From the IMG/VR virus record IMGVR_UViG_2526164649_000022: 34,807 nucleotides of DNA; one strand, given 5' to 3'. The translations under genes were made by a program, and so were the position numbers. Below are positions 1-34,807 of the stretch, in pieces; the first letter of the stretch is position 1, and every line of letters begins with the position of its first letter. The notes under the pieces were generated by a model. It worked only from the letters and a program-made list of their open reading frames with translations, ran no database searches and was not told where the DNA came from. The DNA is from a virus. Lineage: Duplodnaviria; Heunggongvirae; Uroviricota; Caudoviricetes.

Positions 1-738
1 TCACTTCGGGTAAGGCTGAATCCTGAATAGCTTAGTATTTAGTCGCTTTCTTGCGCGCTTGTTCAGGAACCTGATGTAACGATATTGATTAAATTTGTGT
101 ACCACGGCCCGCTCCTTATTCGCTCGTAAATATTCGCCGCGCTTCCCTCCACGATTAATCGCATTCATCGTTATCTCGTGATACCACTCACCGTCCAGTT
201 CGTAGAATATGCTTTCATGGCTGCCAATAAAATCAAAATTTGACGCCTGATACACAACACCTGCACACCCGCAACGTTCGTCTGCAAAGGACTGAACCCA
301 CTCCACTGACGGATACAGTAACCTGATGGTTTTCAGCGCGTAGCTGATGGCCCGTGATTCAGAGTTGCGGGGCATGTCGTCGTGTAGCCACATGCGGTTC
401 AGTTCCATATAGCCCCGGTTATCCGTTTCAAGCACAACGCGACGCCCTGAGTTGGGGTTAAGGGCATATCCCCACTGAAGAACACCAACCAGATCACGTC
501 CACTGAATACGCCCAGATGCAACCAGGAGTTATTCACAAAACGGCGGGAATAATGCTTTGTCTGAATGATTGTGCGGGCCAGCCAGCAGGATATGGTTTC
601 AACGCGCAGCTCCCTTGAACCATAGCCGACAATCCGGCCTTCATACTCAATAACGCAGGGTTTTGTCAGAATGCGTGATTTCTTCTCTTTTCCCACAATA
701 CAGCTCCGTGGGATGCTCCCGGGCACTCGATATGACAA
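1..738 (-). CDS. mom: Mom-like DNA modification (anti-restriction) protein; stop codon at window positions 1-3; start uncertain because the reading frame overlaps com
   Basis: 245-aa ORF immediately downstream of, and overlapping, a recognisable com zinc-finger gene, as in the Mu com-mom operon at the phage right end. Confidence 0.7.
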
Positions 739-832
739 TGTAACGTTTACAGCGAGGACATTTGATTTCTATATGCTTAAAACCTCCTTTAAACAGCAAT
801 TTATTGCAATTTTTACAACGAACAGAGTCCAT
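647..832 (-). CDS. com: Com zinc-finger translational activator of mom
   Basis: Internal Met of the 81-aa track ORF gives a 61-aa product [13 protein letters not shown]...CPRCKR with a CxxC...CxxC zinc finger closely matching recalled Mu Com; overlaps mom. Confidence 0.8.
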
Positions 833-892
833 AATTTCCCCCAGTGTAATAACAGGATATAGCTGCCCGGAGGGCTGGGGGTATTTAATCAC

Positions 893-957
893 ACTTGATG
901 CAAACCGACGATCGATATGATGCTATCGATCGTCATAAACTATACAAACTGATTATT
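893..957 (-). promoter_or_regulatory. Putative com-mom promoter/operator region with a Dam-site inverted repeat
   Basis: Perfect 10-bp inverted repeat ACGATCGATA/TATCGATCGT (908-917 and 924-933) carrying two GATC sites, about 75-100 bp upstream of the com ATG; Mu Pmom is known to be Dam/OxyR regulated. Confidence 0.4.
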
Positions 958-1059
958 TAATCGCCTGGTAGACTGGCCCCCTGAATCTCCAGACAACCAG
1001 TATCACTTATTTAAGTGATAGTCTTAATACTAGTTTTTAGACTAGTCATTGGAGAACAG

Positions 1060-1425
1060 ATGATTGATGTCTTAGGGCCGGAGAAACGCAGACGGCGTAC
1101 CACACAGGAAAAGATCGCAATTGTTCAGCAGAGCTTTGAACCGGGGATGACGGTCTCCCTCGTTGCCCGGCAACATGGTGTAGCAGCCAGCCAGTTATTT
1201 CTCTGGCGTAAGCAATACCAGGAAGGAAGTCTTACTGCTGTGGCCGCCGGAGAACAGGTTGTTCCTGCCTCTGAACTTGCTGCCGCCATGAAGCAGATTA
1301 AAGAACTCCAGCGCCTGCTCGGCAAGAAAACGATGGAAAATGAACTCCTCAAAGAAGCCGTTGAATATGGACGGGCAAAAAAGTGGATAGCGCACGCGCC
1401 CTTATTGCCCGGGGATGGGGAGTAA
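1060..1425 (+). CDS. insC: IS2 transposase OrfA (InsC)
   Basis: [40 protein letters not shown] matches recalled InsC; the track ORF start at 1015 is an upstream extension. Confidence 0.9.
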
Positions 1426-2288
1426 GCTTAGTCAGCCGTTGTCTCCGGGTGTCGCGTGCGCAGTTGCACGTCATTCTCAGACGAACCGATGACTGGATGG
1501 ATGGCCGCCGCAGTCGTCACACTGATGATACGGATGTGCTTCTCCGTATACACCATGTTATCGGAGAGCTGCCCACGTATGGTTATCGTCGGGTATGGGC
1601 GCTGCTTCGCAGACAGGCAGAACTTGATGGTATGCCTGCGATCAATGCCAAACGTGTTTACCGGATCATGCGCCAGAATGCGCTGTTGCTTGAGCGAAAA
1701 CCTGCTGTACCGCCATCGAAACGGGCACATACAGGCAGAGTAGCCGTGAAAGAAAGCAATCAGCGATGGTGCTCTGACGGGTTCGAGTTCTGCTGTGATA
1801 ACGGAGAGAGACTGCGTGTCACGTTCGCGCTGGACTGCTGTGATCGTGAGGCACTGCACTGGGCGGTGACTACCGGCGGCTTCAACAGTGAAACAGTACA
1901 GGACGTCATGCTGGGAGCGGTGGAACGCCGCTTCGGCAACGATCTTCCGTCGTCTCCAGTGGAGTGGCTGACGGATAATGGTTCATGCTACCGGGCTAAT
2001 GAAACACGCCAGTTCGCCCGGATGTTGGGACTTGAACCGAAGAACACGGCGGTGCGGAGTCCGGAGAGTAACGGAATAGCAGAGAGCTTCGTGAAAACGA
2101 TAAAGCGTGACTACATCAGTATCATGCCCAAACCAGACGGGTTAACGGCAGCAAAGAACCTTGCAGAGGCGTTCGAGCATTATAACGAATGGCATCCGCA
2201 TAGTGCGCTGGGTTATCGCTCGCCACGGGAATATCTGCGGCAGCGGGCTTGTAATGGGTTAAGTGATAACAGATGTCTGGAAATATAG
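1383..2288 (+). CDS. insD: IS2 transposase OrfB (InsD), DDE integrase domain
   Basis: 301-aa ORF overlapping insC in the arrangement typical of IS3-family OrfA/OrfB. Confidence 0.9.
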
Positions 2289-2919
2289 GGGCAAATCCAC
2301 CTGGTCTGAACGCTCTCACCTCGTCCAGTGTGGGCAACAGAGAAAGTTGTTCTTTCATCTCCCGCTGACAGCGATAAATCTCATCGTTGCGCTCAACAAT
2401 GGCCTGTATCATCGCTGTGGCCAGTTCCTCAAGTTCCTGCGTCGTCAGCTGCACCTGCTGATTATCCGCATCACTCCACGTCATATTTGTTTGTGCCGCG
2501 ACAGATTTTGCCAGCATGACTACCGGGGACAGGCGGCCCAGTGAGTCGGGGCCAGCATTCCAGATACGACCGTTCCATTCAAACGTGAACGGCTTCGCCT
2601 CCTGTTCTGTGCGCCATGCTTCAATTTCCTGACGTCTGGCCTCTCTGGCCGCTTCCAGCATTTCTGGTGTCACAGTGAATGGGGCTATCTCACCCCATTT
2701 GCCACTTTGCAGTTCCTGCCAGATTCGCTGACCCGTCGGTGCGACATCATCAGCGGTGGCTGTGTAGGGGACTGCCTGGTCCCTGTCGTCAAAAAAAACG
2801 TCACAGTCTACTGCGCCACTTTCGGTATAACGGGGATTAATGATTTTTTTAATTTCCACGGTGCATTCCTCACGATGTGCGAATAAAAAGCCCGGGCATT
2901 GCGCCAGAGACATGAGCAT
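2122..2919 (-). CDS. Phage tail-module protein (putative second tail-fibre assembly/chaperone-like); phage-derived part is 2300-2919; C-terminus replaced by read-through into IS2
   Basis: Position directly downstream of a tail-fibre gene; removing IS2 and one duplication copy restores ...RAFRPGD followed by TAA. A GTG start at 2859 with a GAGGA Shine-Dalgarno is plausible instead of the ATG at 2919. Confidence 0.5.
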
Positions 2920-3223: not shown

Positions 3224-4272
3224 CCAGTCAGTCTGGATATGGGCCAGTAGCAGTAGCGGGTGTGATAAATGGGGCCGTTAATGCCGTAAAAAGTAAGGGA
3301 TTTGGCTCTGTACCGCGGTTCTGTTGTCTCAGGGCGTGCATCAGTCCACCGGATGCTGAGCCCCCCTTCAAACCGTGTGTCGGGTATGATGATGCCGTAG
3401 GGGCCAGCAACGGAATATTCAACTGGCAGCGCATTCCTTACCCAGGCCAGGAAATCACTCTTAGTGTCAAAACGGATAACATCTTCAGGCAGAAAAGCAC
3501 ACCCAAAGCCGAATGCGCCGGGTATCGCCAGACGGCCTTTTGTCCGGTCGTAAATGTCGCTCTGTGCTTCCATCGTGGCCGCACTTTTCAGCCCCAGATT
3601 ATCCCGGGACTTCTGTTGTGCCTTTTCGCCTGCTGCTGCGATTTCAGACAGATGGTTAGCCGTTTTCAGAGTGCCGGTCAGCGCAGCATCAATGTCATTT
3701 TTGGCCTGCTCTGCTGCGCGGGCATAACCTGCGGCTGCCTGTGCACGCTGACCGGATAAGACGGCGTTTTTCCCTGTGCTTTTCACGTCTTCCGCTGTGG
3801 CCTTTCTGTTCTCAGCTGTGACGCTTGCATCCTGTCGGGCTTTCTCCGCAAAACGTTGTGCATCATCACGGGCCGTTGCGGCTGCCGTCACATCCTGCGC
3901 CGTCTGCCGTGCGTTTCCGGCTGCGCTCCCGGCACTCTGCTGCGCCTGTTGCGCCAGCTCTTCGAATTTCTTCAGGGATTCCGGACGCAGGTCAATATCA
4001 GTTGCGCCCAGAAAATCATTCAGCGAACCGTCCGTTGAATCTTCATAAACGCGGATGACACCGATTTCTGAAAGGCGCTGTGTGCTTTGTGTCAGGCGAA
4101 CGCTGTACACACCCGGCAGAACGGGGAAGTCATATTCCCCGTTCTGTGTGGTGACATGGCTGAAAACACTTTTCAGAATCCCTGCACGGTTGTGCATGGA
4201 GGTTAGTGTAATGGTTGCGCCGCCCAGCGGTTCTCCCGTGGGCGTTTTAATCACACCTTTAAGCTGCGGCAT
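3220..4272 (-). CDS. Tail fibre protein with lambda side-tail-fibre-like N-terminal domain
   Basis: N-terminus MPQLKGVIKTPTGEPLGGATITL...VYEDSTDGSLNDFL resembles the lambda Stf N-terminal domain, followed by an Ala/Gln-rich coiled region and a distinct C-terminal domain. Confidence 0.7.
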   Translation of the reverse strand: MPQLKGVIKTPTGEPLGGATITLTSMHNRAGILKSVFSHVTTQNGEYDFPVLPGVYSVRLTQSTQRLSEIGVIRVYEDSTDGSLNDFLGATDIDLRPESLKKFEELAQQAQQSAGSAAGNARQTAQDVTAAATARDDAQRFAEKARQDASVTAENRKATAEDVKSTGKNAVLSGQRAQAAAGYARAAEQAKNDIDAALTGTLKTANHLSEIAAAGEKAQQKSRDNLGLKSAATMEAQSDIYDRTKGRLAIPGAFGFGCAFLPEDVIRFDTKSDFLAWVRNALPVEYSVAGPYGIIIPDTRFEGGLSIRWTDARPETTEPRYRAKSLTFYGINGPIYHTRYCYWPISRLTG

Positions 4273-13606: not shown

Positions 13607-13909
13607 TTAACGCGTATTTTTCAGCGACTCCTGTGCAAAATACGCTGTTGCTTTTTTTAATATATCTCGCTCAAGGCGAGCTTCATTTAACGCCTTACGC
13701 AGTTGCAGAATTTCAGATTCCAGTTCAGCCACCGTGCGGGAACCAGGAGTACCGAGCCCTTTTCTGGCGGCGGTAACCCATTGTCCTAAAGTGCCTTCAG
13801 GAAGGGATAATCGGGAAGCGCCTTCACTGATCGAAAGTTGATTTTCAAGAACCGTTCTGACAGCTTCGGCTTTGAACTCTTTAGAGTAACGTTGGGTTTT
13901 TCTGCTCAT
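13607..13909 (-). CDS. IS600 transposase OrfA (HTH/leucine zipper)
   Basis: 100-aa ORF MSRKTQRYSKEFKAEAVRTVLENQLSISEGA..., typical IS3-family OrfA. Confidence 0.9.
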   Translation of the reverse strand: MSRKTQRYSKEFKAEAVRTVLENQLSISEGASRLSLPEGTLGQWVTAARKGLGTPGSRTVAELESEILQLRKALNEARLERDILKKATAYFAQESLKNTR

Positions 13910-13965
13910 TATTAGCTCCTTCTGATGCCATTCTATTTCAGGAAGGAGTGTCCGTTAAACTCAGG

Positions 13966-14181
13966 CTACCTCAACCTGTTGCCATACTGTTTCTCCAGTT
14001 GCTTTATCAGGCGGAACAACTGCCGCAGGGGCAGTTGTTCCAGGTACTGAATGCTGAATCGCGAAGACAGGTTAACCAGCAGGTTCATCAGTGCCGCCGC
14101 CAGCGGCATCAGTTCGCCCCCGCGTTGCCACCTCCTCAAGCATGTCATCCAGCACAGCCGCTTTCGTGCTGATAAGCTCAA
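13966..14181 (-). CDS. Frameshift extension frame of the tail assembly chaperone (G-T-like); last two codons and stop lie in the IS600 terminus
   Basis: ORF overlapping the 3' end of the chaperone gene in another frame, with a G5 run (C5 on plus strand, 14117-14121) at the overlap. Confidence 0.45.
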   Translation of the reverse strand: MSLSARKRLCWMTCLRRWQRGGELMPLAAALMNLLVNLSSRFSIQYLEQLPLRQLFRLIKQLEKQYGNRLR

Positions 14182-27272: not shown

Positions 27273-27860
27273 TCACCCCCGCGTGGCGGACGGCGCGTTG
27301 TCGATGATTTCCAGACAGGCGTCGGTCAGTTCTTCCATGCGGTTAAACCATCCGTTCAGGTATTTGCCCTGGGCGGGTTTTGATTTGATGATGTCGGCAT
27401 AAAAGCGGGAACGACGGACAATACAGCGGGTCAGCAACCAGTCCGGGTTAGACAGGTTCACGGCCCTGCGGGTACGCGGGCCGATGATGCCGTCAGCATC
27501 CACATCAGCGGCTTCCTGCAAAATTCTGATGGCTTTTTTAACGCCATGCTGAACCGCCGCATCGAACACAAACAGCGCTACACCATCAGGCCACTGCTCA
27601 CACCCGGCTGGCAGCCAGTAATCGCGCCAGTAAATCTGCGCAGCCTGTTCGCGGGTCAAATCTTTGATGCGGGTATCCGGTTTGCCGTCTCCGTTGACGT
27701 CGGTTTTGCCGTCAATCACACCGTCGCGGCGGTCAGAAATGCCGTATCTGGTTTCGCCGCCACGGTCAGTGGGGTCATTGACATAGACGCCTTCGATATC
27801 GGGACGCAGAATAAAATTCAGCGCATACTCAAAGGCCGGGGAGAATTTTTGATTTTCCAT
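27273..27860 (-). CDS. Endolysin (glycoside hydrolase family 108-like with peptidoglycan-binding domain)
   Basis: 195-aa ORF, first gene after the Mor-family activator and terminator; family call from recalled motif architecture. Confidence 0.65.
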   Translation of the reverse strand: MENQKFSPAFEYALNFILRPDIEGVYVNDPTDRGGETRYGISDRRDGVIDGKTDVNGDGKPDTRIKDLTREQAAQIYWRDYWLPAGCEQWPDGVALFVFDAAVQHGVKKAIRILQEAADVDADGIIGPRTRRAVNLSNPDWLLTRCIVRRSRFYADIIKSKPAQGKYLNGWFNRMEELTDACLEIIDNAPSATRG

Positions 27861-27945: not shown

Positions 27946-28395
27946 TTAAGGACGTCGTGGCGGACGACGAACGGGGTGAGGCAGGTTCGGGGAGTGGTAA
28001 AACAAATCCGGCTGGTATTTATTACACTCCAGACGCCGCATCCGCTTGATGGCCTTGTAGACGGTTTTATACGTCACCCCGTAACGCTGAACCAGTTCAG
28101 GAATATTATGGCCGTTAAAATCACGCCAGATACGCATATCCCGGACAAGATTCTCCAGAATATTCCCCCTCGGAACATAAACCTGCATCCCGCCGATATA
28201 GCGACAAATCGCCACAACCAGCTCAAGGGAATGGGCAGGGTCTGCGCCAATCCGGGCCAGCTCTTTACGCAGCAGTGCGTTCAGTTCAGAAAGTAACGCC
28301 GGATAAGCCGTGTTTTCCTGGTAATCGTTAAGGTATTCCAGAACGCTGTCGTCCCGGAAGTCTTCGAATAAATCCTGCTCTTTCATCTGTTTCAT
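27946..28395 (-). CDS. mor: Mor/C-family transcriptional activator of middle/late genes
   Basis: 149-aa ORF directly downstream of GemA-like gene with C-terminal helix-turn-helix region (ELVQRYGVTYKTVYKAIKRMRR), as in Mu Mor/C. Confidence 0.7.
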   Translation of the reverse strand: MKQMKEQDLFEDFRDDSVLEYLNDYQENTAYPALLSELNALLRKELARIGADPAHSLELVVAICRYIGGMQVYVPRGNILENLVRDMRIWRDFNGHNIPELVQRYGVTYKTVYKAIKRMRRLECNKYQPDLFYHSPNLPHPVRRPPRRP

Positions 28396-28943
28396 ACAGC
28401 AATTCTCCCGCTGTTTCGTGCGCGGGCATACGCACTGGTCAGTGCATCATAGCCGCGCAGCTCCTGCCCGGTTTCGCTCACAGGTAAAGGCACACCATGT
28501 CGGGCAAAGGCTTCACGGATGCAGCGCATATGCCACTGTTTGAGCGTTTCGAGCACAACCTGCAACGATTCCCCGTGACACCAGGCCAGCGTGGAAACAC
28601 CCTGACCGCCATTACGTCTGGCTGTCAGGCGTTCAACGTATTTGTCCAGCGCAGCGTCGCTGATATCGGAGACGAAACCATCAAGGAACATCTGCTGCCA
28701 GATTTTATAAATCTTCTCGCGCGGTGTGACATGCCCCTTAAAGCGACGGCGGGGATGTTTTTTCTGCTTCTTAAAACCGCGCTCTTTCATGGCATCGAGC
28801 ACACGTTCCAGTTGTGCAACGGAAAGCTCGCGGCAACTGGTTTTGCCCGTGCACTGCACCAGAAAGGTGCGGTAAGTGTCATCGTCGAGTTGCAGGTCAC
28901 GACGGGCAACATGAATTAATTTAATCAGGGATGTGCAGCTCAT
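28392..28943 (-). CDS. gemA: GemA-like protein (Mu gp16-like)
   Basis: 183-aa ORF immediately upstream of the Mor-family gene, matching Mu gemA-mor order. Confidence 0.55.
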   Translation of the reverse strand: MSCTSLIKLIHVARRDLQLDDDTYRTFLVQCTGKTSCRELSVAQLERVLDAMKERGFKKQKKHPRRRFKGHVTPREKIYKIWQQMFLDGFVSDISDAALDKYVERLTARRNGGQGVSTLAWCHGESLQVVLETLKQWHMRCIREAFARHGVPLPVSETGQELRGYDALTSAYARARNSGRIAV

Positions 28944-30419: not shown

Positions 30420-31370
30420 CTACCAGTTCAGTAACCTGGGGTTGCTGTAAGCCTCCTTAAAAGCCGCTTTAATGTGACTTTTATTCAGGGATGTGCCTGC
30501 ACCTTTTGCCGCCAGCCACGCATGATTCAGTGTGTGAGTTAATACACGCAATTCCCCGGGCTTTTCGGCTACCCTCATCAGCAGGTCCAGCTCATCTTCC
30601 TGTGTTACTCCCCATGCTTTGGCTACAGCCATCACATCGGTCTTTTTTACTTTGCGCAGTTGTTTTGTCATGGCAAAACGGCTGAACAGACGGGCCAGTT
30701 CATCAGTCCCACGACGGGTGGCATCCGCCATCTGTTTCGGGTTGCCAATTAAAACCATCCCCACGCCAGTGGCATCCTGAATGGCGCGTAATTGCTCCAG
30801 ACCATCCACACTTAAGTGATCAGCTTCATCAATAATCAGAAGGGGGTTAACACGGCCACTGGTTTCTTTACCACCACCCAGTTTTCTGCGAATGGCGCGG
30901 GTTATATTCCCCTTATTTCTTCCCGGATTATTAATTTCCAGCGCATATGCTATTTCAAGGAGGCATTCCGTTACGCTCGAATGTGCCGGAGCAAGAGTCA
31001 CCATCCAGGCATTAGCTGTCCTGCGACAATATTCCCGGGCAGCAAAGGTTTTTCCGACACCCGGTACGCCAACAACGACACTGATAATCCCGAGTGAGCG
31101 CACTGTTTTAAACAGCTCATGCAAATCACAAAATGTCTGGGTCTTCACAACACCAGGGGTACCTGACAAGTTCTGTCCCTTCTGCCAGACCTGATACCAT
31201 TTCTGTAATTTGTCATGCATACCTTCGACATTACCGTTGTACTCTCCTTTACGCAGAGCCGAGAGTGTTGCCGGAGACATTCCGGCTTCATCAGCAATAT
31301 CTTCCTGAGACTTGTCGCCCTCGTTAATCAAAGCGTTAATAGTGTTGAAAACATCATCAATATCAGTCAT
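30420..31370 (-). CDS. B: Mu B-like AAA+ ATPase (transposition target-DNA activator)
   Basis: 316-aa ORF with Walker A GVPGVGKT, immediately downstream of the transposase gene. Confidence 0.85.
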   Translation of the reverse strand: MTDIDDVFNTINALINEGDKSQEDIADEAGMSPATLSALRKGEYNGNVEGMHDKLQKWYQVWQKGQNLSGTPGVVKTQTFCDLHELFKTVRSLGIISVVVGVPGVGKTFAAREYCRRTANAWMVTLAPAHSSVTECLLEIAYALEINNPGRNKGNITRAIRRKLGGGKETSGRVNPLLIIDEADHLSVDGLEQLRAIQDATGVGMVLIGNPKQMADATRRGTDELARLFSRFAMTKQLRKVKKTDVMAVAKAWGVTQEDELDLLMRVAEKPGELRVLTHTLNHAWLAAKGAGTSLNKSHIKAAFKEAYSNPRLLNW

Positions 31371-31445: not shown

Positions 31446-33273
31446 TCAGGCCAGCGGATCATCTTCTTCCTGCATGGCAAAAAGTTTTTGCATCCCCAGC
31501 CGGAAATCGCGTTCAAATTCTTCGTCATGCTCTTCTTCATATTCCGGTTGCTGAACTGCCACCACATTACCAACCGGGCGATAAACATTACTCAGCCAGG
31601 GTTCAGCCTGTTTGTGTTCCAGAATCTGAATACCTTCATCTTCAGCATCACGAATTTTTTCCTCAGCGCGTTTGCGCATTCCTTTAATACGCTGCTGTTG
31701 TTTGTGATATTCAGCACTGACAGCAAAGGCTGCGCGTTTATTGCCGTTCCATATCGCCTCACAGATAAAGCTGCCGTCCTTGCGACGTACCGTAATTCGC
31801 TCGGCGTCATGAATGTCATAACTGATAAGCACTTTGCGACCGTGTTCGTCACGCAACTCCGGCGCGTAGTAAATATTGTTCAGCCACTGAATTTCGCAGC
31901 GTCTTACCGGTCGTTCCACCATTGGGCGGAACATGTCGCGCAGCTCAAGATCACTCAGCCACTCAATTTCGGTGTCTTCTTCTGCCAGGCGTTTTTTCTG
32001 AACTCTGTCGGGCTGTAATGCCGTCCGTTCGGTTTCATCGGCAGCTCAGAATGCGGGCGGTTGTTGTACCATTCCACGCCTTCACGAATAGCCTCAATAA
32101 GCTCCGCCCACGATGGCAGCTCGCGCATTGCCGCTTTCTGGCGGTCGTTCAGAGGCTTGTCCTGTTGCAGGGCGTTAAACGCTGAACGCAGATCACGGTT
32201 AAGTACACGCAACGATTCCCGGTCAGCACCCTTGCCAAAATAGGTGCGATACCTCCTGGCTATACGCATCGGCAGTGTCCGGTTCAGGCGTTCAATAATG
32301 CCGCGTCCCTGTGGATTACCGGCAATACCGGTAGGGTGTTTAATCCCCAGGCGTGGCAGAATACCCACGACCTCTTTGTCCAGCATGTCAGCCGTTTCAC
32401 CGGAACCGTTATCCGAGTAATACAGGAACGGTTTTCCGTGGTTGCGAATGCCGTGCTGTATCGCACCGGCAACGGCGAACACGTTTTCGGCAAGGTCAAG
32501 ACTCCAGCCAACAACAAACCGTGTTCCACCATCGATCACAAACGTGACTTCCGGTGAGAATGGACGCCCGTGGATCGGATGCGCACATTTCAGCTTCATA
32601 CCGTGACCGTCACCAATCCAGACATAATTCACCGGCATAGCTGTCCAGTCGCGGCGGGTGAATCCTTCAAGCTGACGGTATTCACTGCCGGTAACGCGCC
32701 CTTTTTGTTTCACCACTTCCGGCAGTTTTTTCATGGCATACCGGACAACATCATAGGAAGGCATCACCTCCAGCATGTACGGTTCGTCCGCATGGCGACG
32801 CTGCCATTCTGCGACAAAATCCTCGTAGGCTTCTGACATGGGTCTGCCGTTCACCTGGCGATACTGCGCCAGAAATTCAGGCAGCCAGCTGATTTCTTCC
32901 GGTTTTATTTCGTCGCGTTTTCCCGGTGCCAGTAACAGCAGCCGTTCGGCGGCGTTCTGCGACTGGTTGTATTTCAGAACCCACTGGTAAAGTGGATCGC
33001 GGCTGATAGTACGATTAGCGCCACGTTTTGCATTGGCGTTAACTGCGGCCTGTTGCAGGCGCTCCGGCAGCTCACCTTTACGGGCTTTTTCAACAAGAAA
33101 GTTAATGGCTTTCAGTCGCCCGAGGTTACCGGCGCTTTCCAGCTTCAGCACTTCCACCACCAGCGCAGCTCTTGCTTCAGATACCCAGCGCTGGTTTTCG
33201 GTCAGCGCATTCAGGCGTTCTTCCATCAGTTGTGGAGAACCGCGATATGCTTCGATTGCCTGGACAGCGTCAG
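31446..33273 (-). pseudogene. A: Mu A-like DDE transposase, central and C-terminal parts, frameshifted in a T6 run (31992-31997) and severed from its N-terminus by IS600
   Basis: ORFs 31955-33322 and 31446-31934 align to consecutive MuA regions in different frames (...VWIGDGHG... catalytic core; ...NNIYY...DGSFICEA domain III). Confidence 0.8.
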
Positions 33274-33337
33274 TGAGGTAGCCTGAGTTTAACGGACACT
33301 CCTTCCTGAAATAGAATGGCATCAGAAGGAGCTAATA

Positions 33338-33640
33338 ATGAGCAGAAAAACCCAACGTTACTCTAAAGAGTTCAAAGCCGAAGCTGTCAGAACGGTTCTT
33401 GAAAATCAACTTTCGATCAGTGAAGGCGCTTCCCGATTATTCCTTCCTGAAGGCACTTTAGGACAATGGGTTACCGCCGCCAGAAAAGGGCTCGGTACTC
33501 CTGGTTCCCGCACGGTGGCTGAACTGGAATCTGAAATTCTGCAACTGCGTAAGGCGTTAAATGAAGCTCGCCTTGAGCGAGATATATTAAAAAAAGCAAC
33601 AGCGTATTTTGCACAGGAGTCGCTGAAAAATACGCGTTAA
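33338..33640 (+). CDS. IS600 OrfA (copy 2; one Ser-to-Phe difference from copy 1)
   Basis: 100-aa ORF identical to copy 1 except SRLSLPEG to SRLFLPEG. Confidence 0.85.
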   Translation: MSRKTQRYSKEFKAEAVRTVLENQLSISEGASRLFLPEGTLGQWVTAARKGLGTPGSRTVAELESEILQLRKALNEARLERDILKKATAYFAQESLKNTR

Positions 33641-33675: not shown

Positions 33676-34493
33676 ATGTGTCAGGTATTTGGTGTATCCA
33701 GGAGCGGTTATTACAACTGGGTACAGCATGAACCCTCAGACAGAAAACAAAGTGATGAGCGGCTAAAACTGGAGATTAAGGTGGCACATATCCGCACTCG
33801 CGAAACATATGGAACCCGGCGGCTCCAGACGGAGCTGGCAGAGAATGGCATCATCGTTGGTCGTGACCGACTGGCACGTCTTCGTAAGGAGCTAAGGCTA
33901 CGCTGTAAGCAGAAACGCAAGTTCAGAGCGACTACGAACCCGAACCACAATCTGCCAGTTGCGCCAAATCTGCTGAACCAGACGTTCGCTCCTACAGCAC
34001 CAAATCAGGTCTGGGTGGCGGACCTGACGTATGTTGCCACACAGGAGGGATGGTTGTACCTCGCTGGCATCAAAGATGTTTATACGTGCGAAATTGTCGG
34101 CTACGCCATGGGAGAGCGCATGACAAAAGAGCTGACAGGTAAAGCCCTGTTTATGGCGCTCAGGAGCCAGCGCCACCTGCCGGGCTAATCCACCACTCTG
34201 ATCGAGGTTCACAGTACTGCGCATACGATTACCGGGTCATACAGGAGCAGTCTGGTCTGAAAACATCAATGTCGCGTAAAGGTAACTGTTACGACAACGC
34301 TCCGATGGAAAGCTTCTGGGGAACGCTGAAAAATGAGAGCCTGAGCCACTATCGTTTTAATAACCGGGATGAAGCCATCTCAGTAATACGGGAATACATT
34401 GAGATTTTCTACAATCGTCAGCGTCGTCACTCTCGTCTGGGGAATATCTCCCCGGCAGCCTTCAGGGAAAAATATCATCAGATGGCTGCTTAA
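33676..34493 (+). pseudogene. IS600 OrfB (copy 2), frameshifted by a 1-bp deletion
   Basis: Copy 1 reads AGCGCCCACCTGCC, copy 2 AGCGCCACCTGCC (about 34171-34176); ORF splits into 33676-34188 and 34269-34493. Confidence 0.8.
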
Positions 34494-34536
34494 AAAAAGA
34501 ACAAATGGTAGTATCCGCTATTGCCAGTACACCTCA

Positions 34537-34807
34537 CAGGATTGCGTGTTTTTCTGGTAACAGCTTTCACTTCAGAAACATTGTTCTCTGTAGCCACCAG
34601 CTGTTCCACATAGCGTTCACGCAGTGCCTTTCGTGTTATTTCAGGCAGACAATCAATGTGGTACTCAATGGCTTTTGTGCCTTCCCGACGGCGACTAACG
34701 TCACCAAGATCACGAGAAAAACGCTGTAACGCCTGTCGGATGCCTTTTGTGGTGGCTGGCATTCCTGGTACGCCGAGCAGGTCATTTACGGTAACGTACG
34801 ACTGCAT
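34537..34807 (-). pseudogene. A: N-terminal 90 codons of the Mu A-like transposase gene, separated from the rest by IS600 copy 2
   Basis: ...GTKAIEYHIDCLPEITRKALRERY resembles the recalled MuA N-terminus (...GGKAIEYNANSLPVEAKAAL...); in frame with the 31955-33273 segment once IS600 and one duplication copy are removed; ATG at 34805-34807. Confidence 0.75.

Follow-up and report, generated by a model that had tools for sequence, protein, structure and literature searches.

The mom promoter of phage Mu is a textbook example of gene control by DNA adenine methylation, and its OxyR operator is reportedly to be credited to Bolker and Kahmann (1989), Sun and Hattman (1996) and Hattman and Sun (1997). 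A Mu-like prophage of Escherichia coli, analysed here as a single stretch of 34,807 nucleotides (the window), carries an inverted repeat with two GATC sites upstream of com and mom, which raises the question of whether this prophage possesses a methylation-sensitive operator of the Mu type and, if so, how two sites set in a palindrome relate to the arrangement in Mu. In Mu itself, according to the passages of the literature that deal with this promoter, 'region I' of mom is a Dam-methylation-sensitive OxyR operator (PMC3378877, PMC7549136), transcription from Pmom is governed by Dam and OxyR with the activator C also needed (PMC3378877), and three GATC sites are found within about 43 bp (PMC7549136, citing Sun and Hattman 1996). 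The comparisons below suggest that the repeat is probably the core of a diverged and unannotated Dam-methylation-sensitive OxyR operator of the type found at Mu Pmom and agn43.

The com-mom locus and the surrounding prophage

The window represents a Mu-like transposable prophage in minus-strand orientation, and encodes a MuB homologue (30420-31370), GemA (28392-28943) and a GH108 endolysin. Over its first 968 nucleotides it matches the E. coli VL40 chromosome at 99.8% identity, and the annotation there names the neighbouring gene products as Mom, a protein of the Com family and a tail fibre assembly protein with DUF4376. Pfam matches identify both genes of the locus and place the repeat upstream of com-mom, as had originally been predicted. 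The com gene (647-832, minus strand; Zn_ribbon_Com) encodes a zinc-ribbon translational activator of mom that is 71% identical to Mu Com, and mom (1-738, minus strand; Pfam Mom, E = 2.7e-74) encodes a DNA adenine modification enzyme that is 94% identical to Mu Mom. The coordinates of mom are those of the longest ORF, the RefSeq start in the 99.8%-identical copy corresponding to position 696. RefSeq (VL40, L002) now labels Mom as a 'tRNA(Gly)-dependent adenine aminoacyltransferase', in agreement with a 2026 paper (PMC13219725), and labels Com as a 'DNA-binding transcriptional regulator', whereas in the literature it is a translational activator.

The com-mom regulatory region spans 124 bp (833-956), its upstream limit being the stop codon of the tail fibre assembly gene. 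This DUF4376 gene has been severed by an IS2 element (969-2299, plus strand), with its last codons and stop on one side (957-968, minus strand; stop codon 957-959) and the gene body on the other (2305-2919). The insertion of IS2 duplicated 5 bp of target, CCTGG (964-968 and 2300-2304), and removing the element in silico restores a 208-aa DUF4376 protein that terminates at the 957-959 codon. The insertion sits within the last three codons of the gene, which now extends some 60 codons into IS2 (ORF 2122-2919), and the IS2 junction found no match among the complete E. coli genomes in the collection. A second insertion sequence, of the IS3 family and also on the plus strand (HTH_Tnp_1, 33338-33640; HTH_21/rve, 33676-34188), appears to split the MuA-like transposase into a Mu DNA-binding domain (34490-34807) and an rve-like part (31955-33322), both on the minus strand. 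With these two insertions, this copy of the prophage is probably defective. Because the end of IS2 lies 25 bp beyond the ATAG box that bounds the element described below, the putative operator itself is intact. Unlike in Mu, no gin gene or G segment is found between the tail fibre genes and com, so that the upstream neighbour is the tail fibre assembly gene here and gin in Mu.

A perfect palindrome with two GATC sites

The plus strand around the repeat reads ccGACGATCGATAtgatgcTATCGATCGTCat. The original prediction described a perfect 10-bp inverted repeat with a 6-bp spacer, and both arms, ACGATCGATA (908-917) and TATCGATCGT (924-933), can be read directly from the sequence; one further base pairs in each arm, and the repeat finder accordingly reports arms of 11 nt, GACGATCGATA (907-917) and TATCGATCGTC (924-934), that are 100% complementary and separated by 6 nt. 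Relative to the com ATG (832, minus strand), the complete repeat (907-934) is 75-102 bp upstream and its dyad axis, which separates positions 920 and 921, is at -88.5. We take this repeat to be the central part of the putative operator. A site search also recovered the two Dam sites at the positions first noted, 928-931 and 910-913, corresponding to -99 and -81 from the com ATG.

By itself, a perfect 10-bp inverted repeat is not rare in DNA of this length. Windows simulated with a first-order Markov model contained a mean of 0.64 perfect repeats whose arms measured 10 bp or more and whose spacer did not exceed 10 bp, and 39.5% of them held at least one, while the real window has three such loci; taken alone, a repeat of 10 bp would not be significant. 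The other two loci are found at 4117-4148, within the tail fibre gene region, and at 14013-14045, in the intergenic gap 13909-14072, where the repeat is possibly a terminator. Moreover, the symmetry of the repeat upstream of com is partly automatic, because CGATCG and ATCGAT are palindromes themselves.

The GATC sites are more unusual in their context. Across the whole window, 47 GATC sites are observed against 123 +/- 11 expected from shuffled sequences, every one of the 100 shuffles having more. The depletion in the prophage is about 2.6-fold, and the 7.6 kb between 1945 and 9599, occupied by tail genes, has no site at all. The hexamer CGATCG occurs only three times in the 34.8 kb, and two of these occurrences are in the repeat, 18 bp apart. 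The depletion of GATC, the pairing of CGATCG and the conservation among relatives together indicate that the element is non-random, and a chance origin is ruled out by that conservation in combination with the homology to Mu and agn43.

Homology to the operators of Mu mom and agn43

In blastn comparisons with phage genomes, only the com-mom overlap (640-822, 79% identity) aligned, with matches in Mu, D108, SfMu and Yersinia Mu-like phages. At the DNA level, identity to Mu (L001) is mosaic: mom reaches 83-97%, com about 70% and the promoter region 45-52%, a pattern which suggests that modules have been exchanged, the junction lying close to where com and mom overlap.

A global alignment of the two promoter regions nevertheless reveals two islands of identity within the diverged stretch (window, GTATAGTTTATGACGATCGATAGCATCATATCGATCGTCGGTTTGCATCAAG; Mu, ATATAGAAAACGACGATCGAATCAATTAAATCGATCGGTAATACAGATCGATT). 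Both GATC sites of the window find their homologues in this alignment, the site at 928-931 with the distal GATC1 of Mu (-109 from the com ATG) and the site at 910-913 with the middle GATC2 (-91), and the spacing between the two is 18 bp in both phages. That the pair should align inside a region of such low identity counts in favour of an operator shared with Mu. The third, promoter-proximal GATC of Mu (-78) is aligned with a degenerate site, CATC (900 to 897, minus strand), 13 bp past the middle GATC, where agn43 also carries a GATC. In both phages the operator is situated upstream of com-mom, with homologous genes downstream, and consists of the ATAG box followed by ACGATCGA and ATCGATCG, with an ATAACC-like activator box after it. 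The flanks of the operator, in contrast, are only about 50% identical, and the leader of the window is about 10 bp shorter than that of Mu and is without the T6 run of the latter.

The Mu GATC cluster thus maps to the same place as the pair in the window, and the reading as an operator upstream of com-mom survives the comparison. The original prediction had also allowed that two sites in a palindrome might set this geometry apart from that of Mu, and here the outcome is divided. The palindrome is not a point of difference, as the GATC1-GATC2 pair of Mu is itself near-palindromic, with a dyad of 7/8 per arm as compared to the perfect 11/11 per arm in the window; the genuine departure is the loss of the third GATC, which leaves two sites here versus three in Mu and counts against the operator reading.

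In E. coli K-12, the region that regulates agn43 (flu), AATAATAGAATAAAACGATCAATATCTATTTTATCGATCGTTTATATCGATCGATAAGC, is similarly organized. When this region is aligned with Mu, the window and two further prophage copies from E. coli, the skeleton ATAG-N7/8-ACGATC...ATCGATCG is invariant, as is ATC at the third site when Mu, agn43 and three sequences of the window's class are aligned, and this common skeleton again counts for an operator. The whole of the operator can be aligned with agn43, including the ATAG box, ACGATC, ATCGATCG and the AATAACC stretch, and in both cases the GATCs are positioned at the edges of OxyR-like half-sites. The differences are that agn43 has three GATCs, 19 and 13 bp apart, and that its operator, per the literature, is at or downstream of the transcription start and undergoes heritable ON/OFF switching. 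In the passages of PMC2909390 that concern agn43, a single OxyR repressor site is described, at which methylation of GATC abolishes the binding of OxyR, and the relevant portions of the literature describe the operators of both Mu Pmom and agn43 as experimentally characterised and controlled by Dam and OxyR. Homology to these two operators supports the reading of the repeat as a methylation-sensitive operator.

The sequence upstream of agn43 (L146, 480-600) aligns with Mu past the GATC cluster, with AATAACC opposite the C box of Mu, and agn43 is itself located in the cryptic prophage CP4-44. There are hints, from sequence, that the agn43 and Mu Pmom regulatory regions may share ancestry.

A further parallel, by description rather than by sequence, is provided by the gtr genes of Salmonella and P22. 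According to PMC2909390, half-site A and half-site C, with B between them, are flanked by GATC pairs (-110/-97 and -46/-33), and the implied distance of about 32 bp from start to start of the half-sites is regarded by those authors as consistent with reduced OxyR. The gtr regions share with the window the placement of GATCs at the boundaries of 15-bp OxyR half-sites and a spacing suited to reduced OxyR, but differ in having three half-sites and four GATCs in two pairs, and in that OxyR is both activator and repressor.

OxyR-like half-sites on either side of the palindrome centre

Half-sites were scored against the OxyR dimer consensus ATAGnTnnnAnCTAT, as quoted in PMC2909390. The distal OxyR-like half-site, ATAGTTTATGACGAT (929-943, minus strand), matches at 8/10 positions, and its 3' end, GAT, belongs to the GATC at 928-931. 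The corresponding half-sites score 7/10 in Mu and 8/10 in agn43 (the latter by hand count), and a distal site better than that of Mu counts towards an OxyR operator. The promoter-proximal half-site, ATCGTCGGTTTGCAT (898-912, minus strand), overlaps the GATC at 910-913 with its first three bases, ATC, and reaches only 5/10, versus 7/10 in Mu and 8/10 in agn43 (window and agn43 by hand count), which counts against it.

The geometry of the half-sites speaks more favourably. From start to start they are 31 bp apart in the window, 31 bp in Mu and 32 bp in agn43, a spacing like that of gtr, and the midpoint between them coincides with the centre of the palindrome (920|921); both the spacing and the common axis argue for the operator reading. 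Each arm of the palindrome is composed of six inner half-site bases and five bases of the inter-dimer spacer, with a GATC straddling each boundary. The inner arm bases (CGATA / TATCG), which would fall in the inter-dimer spacer, are as conserved as the half-sites, and this is a feature that a simple OxyR model fails to explain.

Scans for the dimer (15 bp) and tetramer (37 bp) motifs of OxyR, allowing gaps of 6-8 bp, were uninformative. The best 37-bp tetramer match is 12/20 in the window and 13/20 in Mu, and an AT-rich region of 140 bp yields similar scores by chance; in the register of Mu and agn43, the motif is matched at 9/20 in the window (hand count), a further point against. Because consensus scores of 12-13/20 do not discriminate, the argument for an operator is one of homology. 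The register of OxyR contacts put forward for the window is a putative one.

Conservation and distribution of the putative operator

With the Mom protein as query, 62 loci were recovered from IMG/VR, and Com could be located in 51 sequences. These fall into three groups, namely the window class (Com at least 93% identical, with two GATCs at about -98/-80), the Mu class (-109/-91/-78) and several other variants. Among 17 distinct upstream sequences of the window class, ACGATCGATA-N6-TATCGATCGT is retained in all 17, and the third position is likewise CATC, with no GATC, in 17/17. The arms vary at 1/22 positions in this set, as compared to 46/102 for the remaining intergenic positions (Fisher p = 1.4e-4), a difference that indicates purifying selection on the arms and that, in a GATC-depleted genome, counts for the operator. 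The conservation extends over a block of about 41-45 bp, the size of an OxyR footprint (906-946; 7/41 positions vary versus 40/83 elsewhere, p = 5.6e-4), and takes in the ATAG box outside the palindrome (946-940). The 58-bp operator is present in 49 of 5426 complete E. coli genomes and annotated in none, and so constitutes a conserved, unannotated module in about 1% of these genomes, a natural form with two sites versus three.

In the case of a more diverged locus, L049 (Mom 80%, Com 59% identical), there are again two GATCs, here within GATCGATA-N6-TATCGATC, and the third site has been lost by a different change (CGATT), a good proximal half-site being kept. Since the window class has CATC and L049 has GATT, the third GATC has been lost at least twice. 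The GATC1-GATC2 dyad is largely preserved across 17 distinct cores with an 18-bp spacing, although these are kin by descent and represent few independent events. One double change that keeps the dyad falls at the innermost arm pair (7,14), which reads A-T in window-class cores and T-A in those of the Mu class.

Beyond these close relatives, a scan of one genome per species yielded 80 Mom loci. Triplets of GATC sites spaced (18,13), (19,13) or (31,13) were found before com-mom in seven Enterobacterales genomes, 40-115 bp upstream of com/mom, in an Enterobacteriaceae MAG, Symbiopectobacterium, Edwardsiella, Apirhabdus and Pantoea. At com-mom of Desulfovibrio, Azospirillum, Rhodospirillaceae, Sphingomonas, Pseudomonas and others, there were no GATC clusters, or only scattered sites. 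This distribution fits an element that would depend on the enterobacterial Dam/OxyR pair, and together with the E. coli host it counts for the operator reading. Related com-mom loci therefore bear out the GATC cluster, in Enterobacterales, but not the perfect palindrome, which is confined to the window class, with an 8-bp form in L049.

Six Mom loci (L044-L047, L068 and L071; 76-80% identical) are without a recognisable com. At these loci a GATC triplet, with spacings of 31 and 13, is found directly upstream of mom, leaving hardly any space for a separate promoter.

The promoter and its putative activator

Downstream of the operator, a second conserved block, TTAAATACCCCCAGCCCTCCGGG (866-888, minus strand), is a putative binding site for a late activator. 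The block holds ATACCCCCAG at 875-884, which is one mismatch from ATAACCCCAG, the box of the Mu late promoter P_I, and which is similar to the ATAACC boxes found in Plys, P_P and Pmom (Mu late promoter sequences from PMC4461284, Table 1). Searches of the whole window for further copies of this box found none that was significant, and no shared late-promoter motif was established. A scan of 640-1100 for sigma-70 promoters found no site, and the missing consensus is as would be expected if, as seems likely, the promoter is activator-dependent. Two candidate -10 hexamers, TATATC and TATTAC, were considered and rejected, being either unconserved in the class or placed such that the leader would be too short.

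The only activator of the Mor/C family in the window is encoded at 27946-28395 (minus strand), and shares 61% identity with Mu Mor and 32% with Mu C. Whereas Mu has the activator C, this phage has the Mor-like activator only, with no C orthologue, and it is the Mor/C-family protein that is presumed to activate the com-mom promoter. The empty sigma-70 scan of 640-1100 and the lack of a C orthologue in the phage count against the proposed operator. The activator gene is followed by a terminator-like hairpin and then directly by the endolysin gene (27273-27860).

A proposed model for the control of com-mom

E. coli has both dam and oxyR, and a mechanism similar to that of Mu can be envisaged. The Dam methylase of the host would methylate the adenines in both GATCs, each of which lies at the inner edge of an OxyR-like half-site (929-943 and 898-912) in an arrangement symmetric about the centre of the palindrome, the 31-bp start-to-start spacing being the extended spacing that reduced OxyR would use. 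When the sites are methylated, the OxyR tetramer would be kept off, and without OxyR a weak com-mom promoter could be induced late in lytic growth by the Mor/C-family activator of the phage, probably by way of the conserved box at 866-888. Unmethylated sites, as in a dam-deficient host or on under-methylated DNA, would let OxyR bind 906-946 and repress transcription of the toxic mom function.

It is by homology to Mu and agn43, where the operators have been shown experimentally, that we infer OxyR binding and methylation sensitivity, and the contact register and the identities of the activator and promoter are likewise putative. The kind of switch would be essentially a known one, with modest variations in the two GATCs, the perfect dyad and the weak proximal half-site.

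Alternative explanations

Some of the features that sit awkwardly with OxyR would be accommodated if the palindrome were the operator of another dimeric DNA-binding protein, of phage or host origin, that reads the 11-bp arms in a lineage where OxyR control has been lost, and whose action might or might not be affected by GATC methylation. The repeat is perfectly symmetric (11-6-11), the invariant inner bases of the arms fall outside the OxyR-like half-sites, the dyad has been kept by the double change at pair (7,14), A-T versus T-A, and the proximal OxyR half-site is degraded with the loss of GATC3. However, the OxyR sites of Mu and agn43 possess the same GATC1-GATC2 dyad, at 7/8 per arm, and because it is common to both, the dyad is best regarded as a property of OxyR operators themselves. 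In addition, the ATAG box, which lies beyond the palindrome, is also conserved, and no candidate protein was found, leaving a different dimeric regulator as an unlikely explanation.

An RNA hairpin on the minus-strand transcript, which would end or pause transcription of the tail genes before com-mom, is very unlikely. A 71-nt stretch does fold, with a 12-bp stem and a minimum free energy of -19.3 kcal/mol (z = -3.0 versus shuffles), the repeat is suitably placed 23 nt downstream of the tail fibre assembly stop (957), and complementarity is kept across lineages. Nevertheless, an intrinsic (rho-independent) terminator at the repeat can be rejected, as the stem is followed by no U tract, the tail GGUUUGCAUC having only three U, and the terminator scan is empty at this position. 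Neither does any Rfam family match in a scan of 1-2400 at E <= 1. The same element, a known site of protein binding, is found downstream of gin in Mu and within a leader in agn43, and conservation applies to the sequence itself, with invariant GATC cores, beyond what mere pairing would require.

Two close GATCs in a GATC-depleted genome might also be taken for a site of the SeqA type, or for another site sensing hemimethylation, that couples com-mom to replication, as the intensive replication of Mu in lytic growth generates hemimethylated DNA on which such a site could act. This is extremely unlikely, there being no specific support for it, and homology to OxyR operators explains the same features as well as the ATAG box, for which SeqA would have no need. 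Equally far-fetched is a functionless relic in a defective prophage, since the damage done by IS2 in the tail fibre assembly gene and by the IS3-family element in the MuA-like transposase concerns this copy, while the element is under purifying selection in the 17 distinct relatives, is found in 49 E. coli genomes, and is intact here, with the same sequence as in VL40, a relative free of the IS insertions.

A natural two-site variant

A Dam/OxyR operator of the Mu and agn43 type would make the window sequence a natural experiment on the number of GATCs and the half-site contacts that OxyR needs to tell methylated from unmethylated DNA. The variant could also be used to probe whether the GATC1-GATC2 dyad is itself recognised, and whether the mom gene of a prophage switches epigenetically in the manner of agn43. 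For annotation, the operator points to where a toxic gene for DNA hypermodification is regulated; in other respects the finding is confirmatory.

It is distinctly unlikely that the symmetric operator with two GATCs is functionally distinct from that of Mu, being either read by a regulator other than OxyR or a minimal bistable Dam/OxyR switch. If it were, the two losses of GATC3 (CATC and GATT), with GATCGATA-N6-TATCGATC kept, would represent selection for a minimal geometry. In the case of a bistable switch, a resident prophage would express Mom in a heritable subpopulation, and the resulting phase-variable hypermodification of DNA would provide the host with a form of anti-restriction or self-marking.

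Other repeats in and around the regulatory region

Two further repeats are found in and around the com-mom regulatory region. A 9-bp direct repeat, GATTAAATA (minus strand), occurs at 882-890 and 954-962, 72 bp apart, and flanks the operator, the copy at 954-962 overlapping the stop codon of the tail fibre assembly gene and the copy at 882-890 opening the block that contains the activator box. There is also a 13-nt inverted repeat, 85% complementary, between 832-844 and 875-887, by which the ribosome-binding region of com (GGGGG) could pair with the upstream box CCCCC, if transcripts begin upstream of that box.
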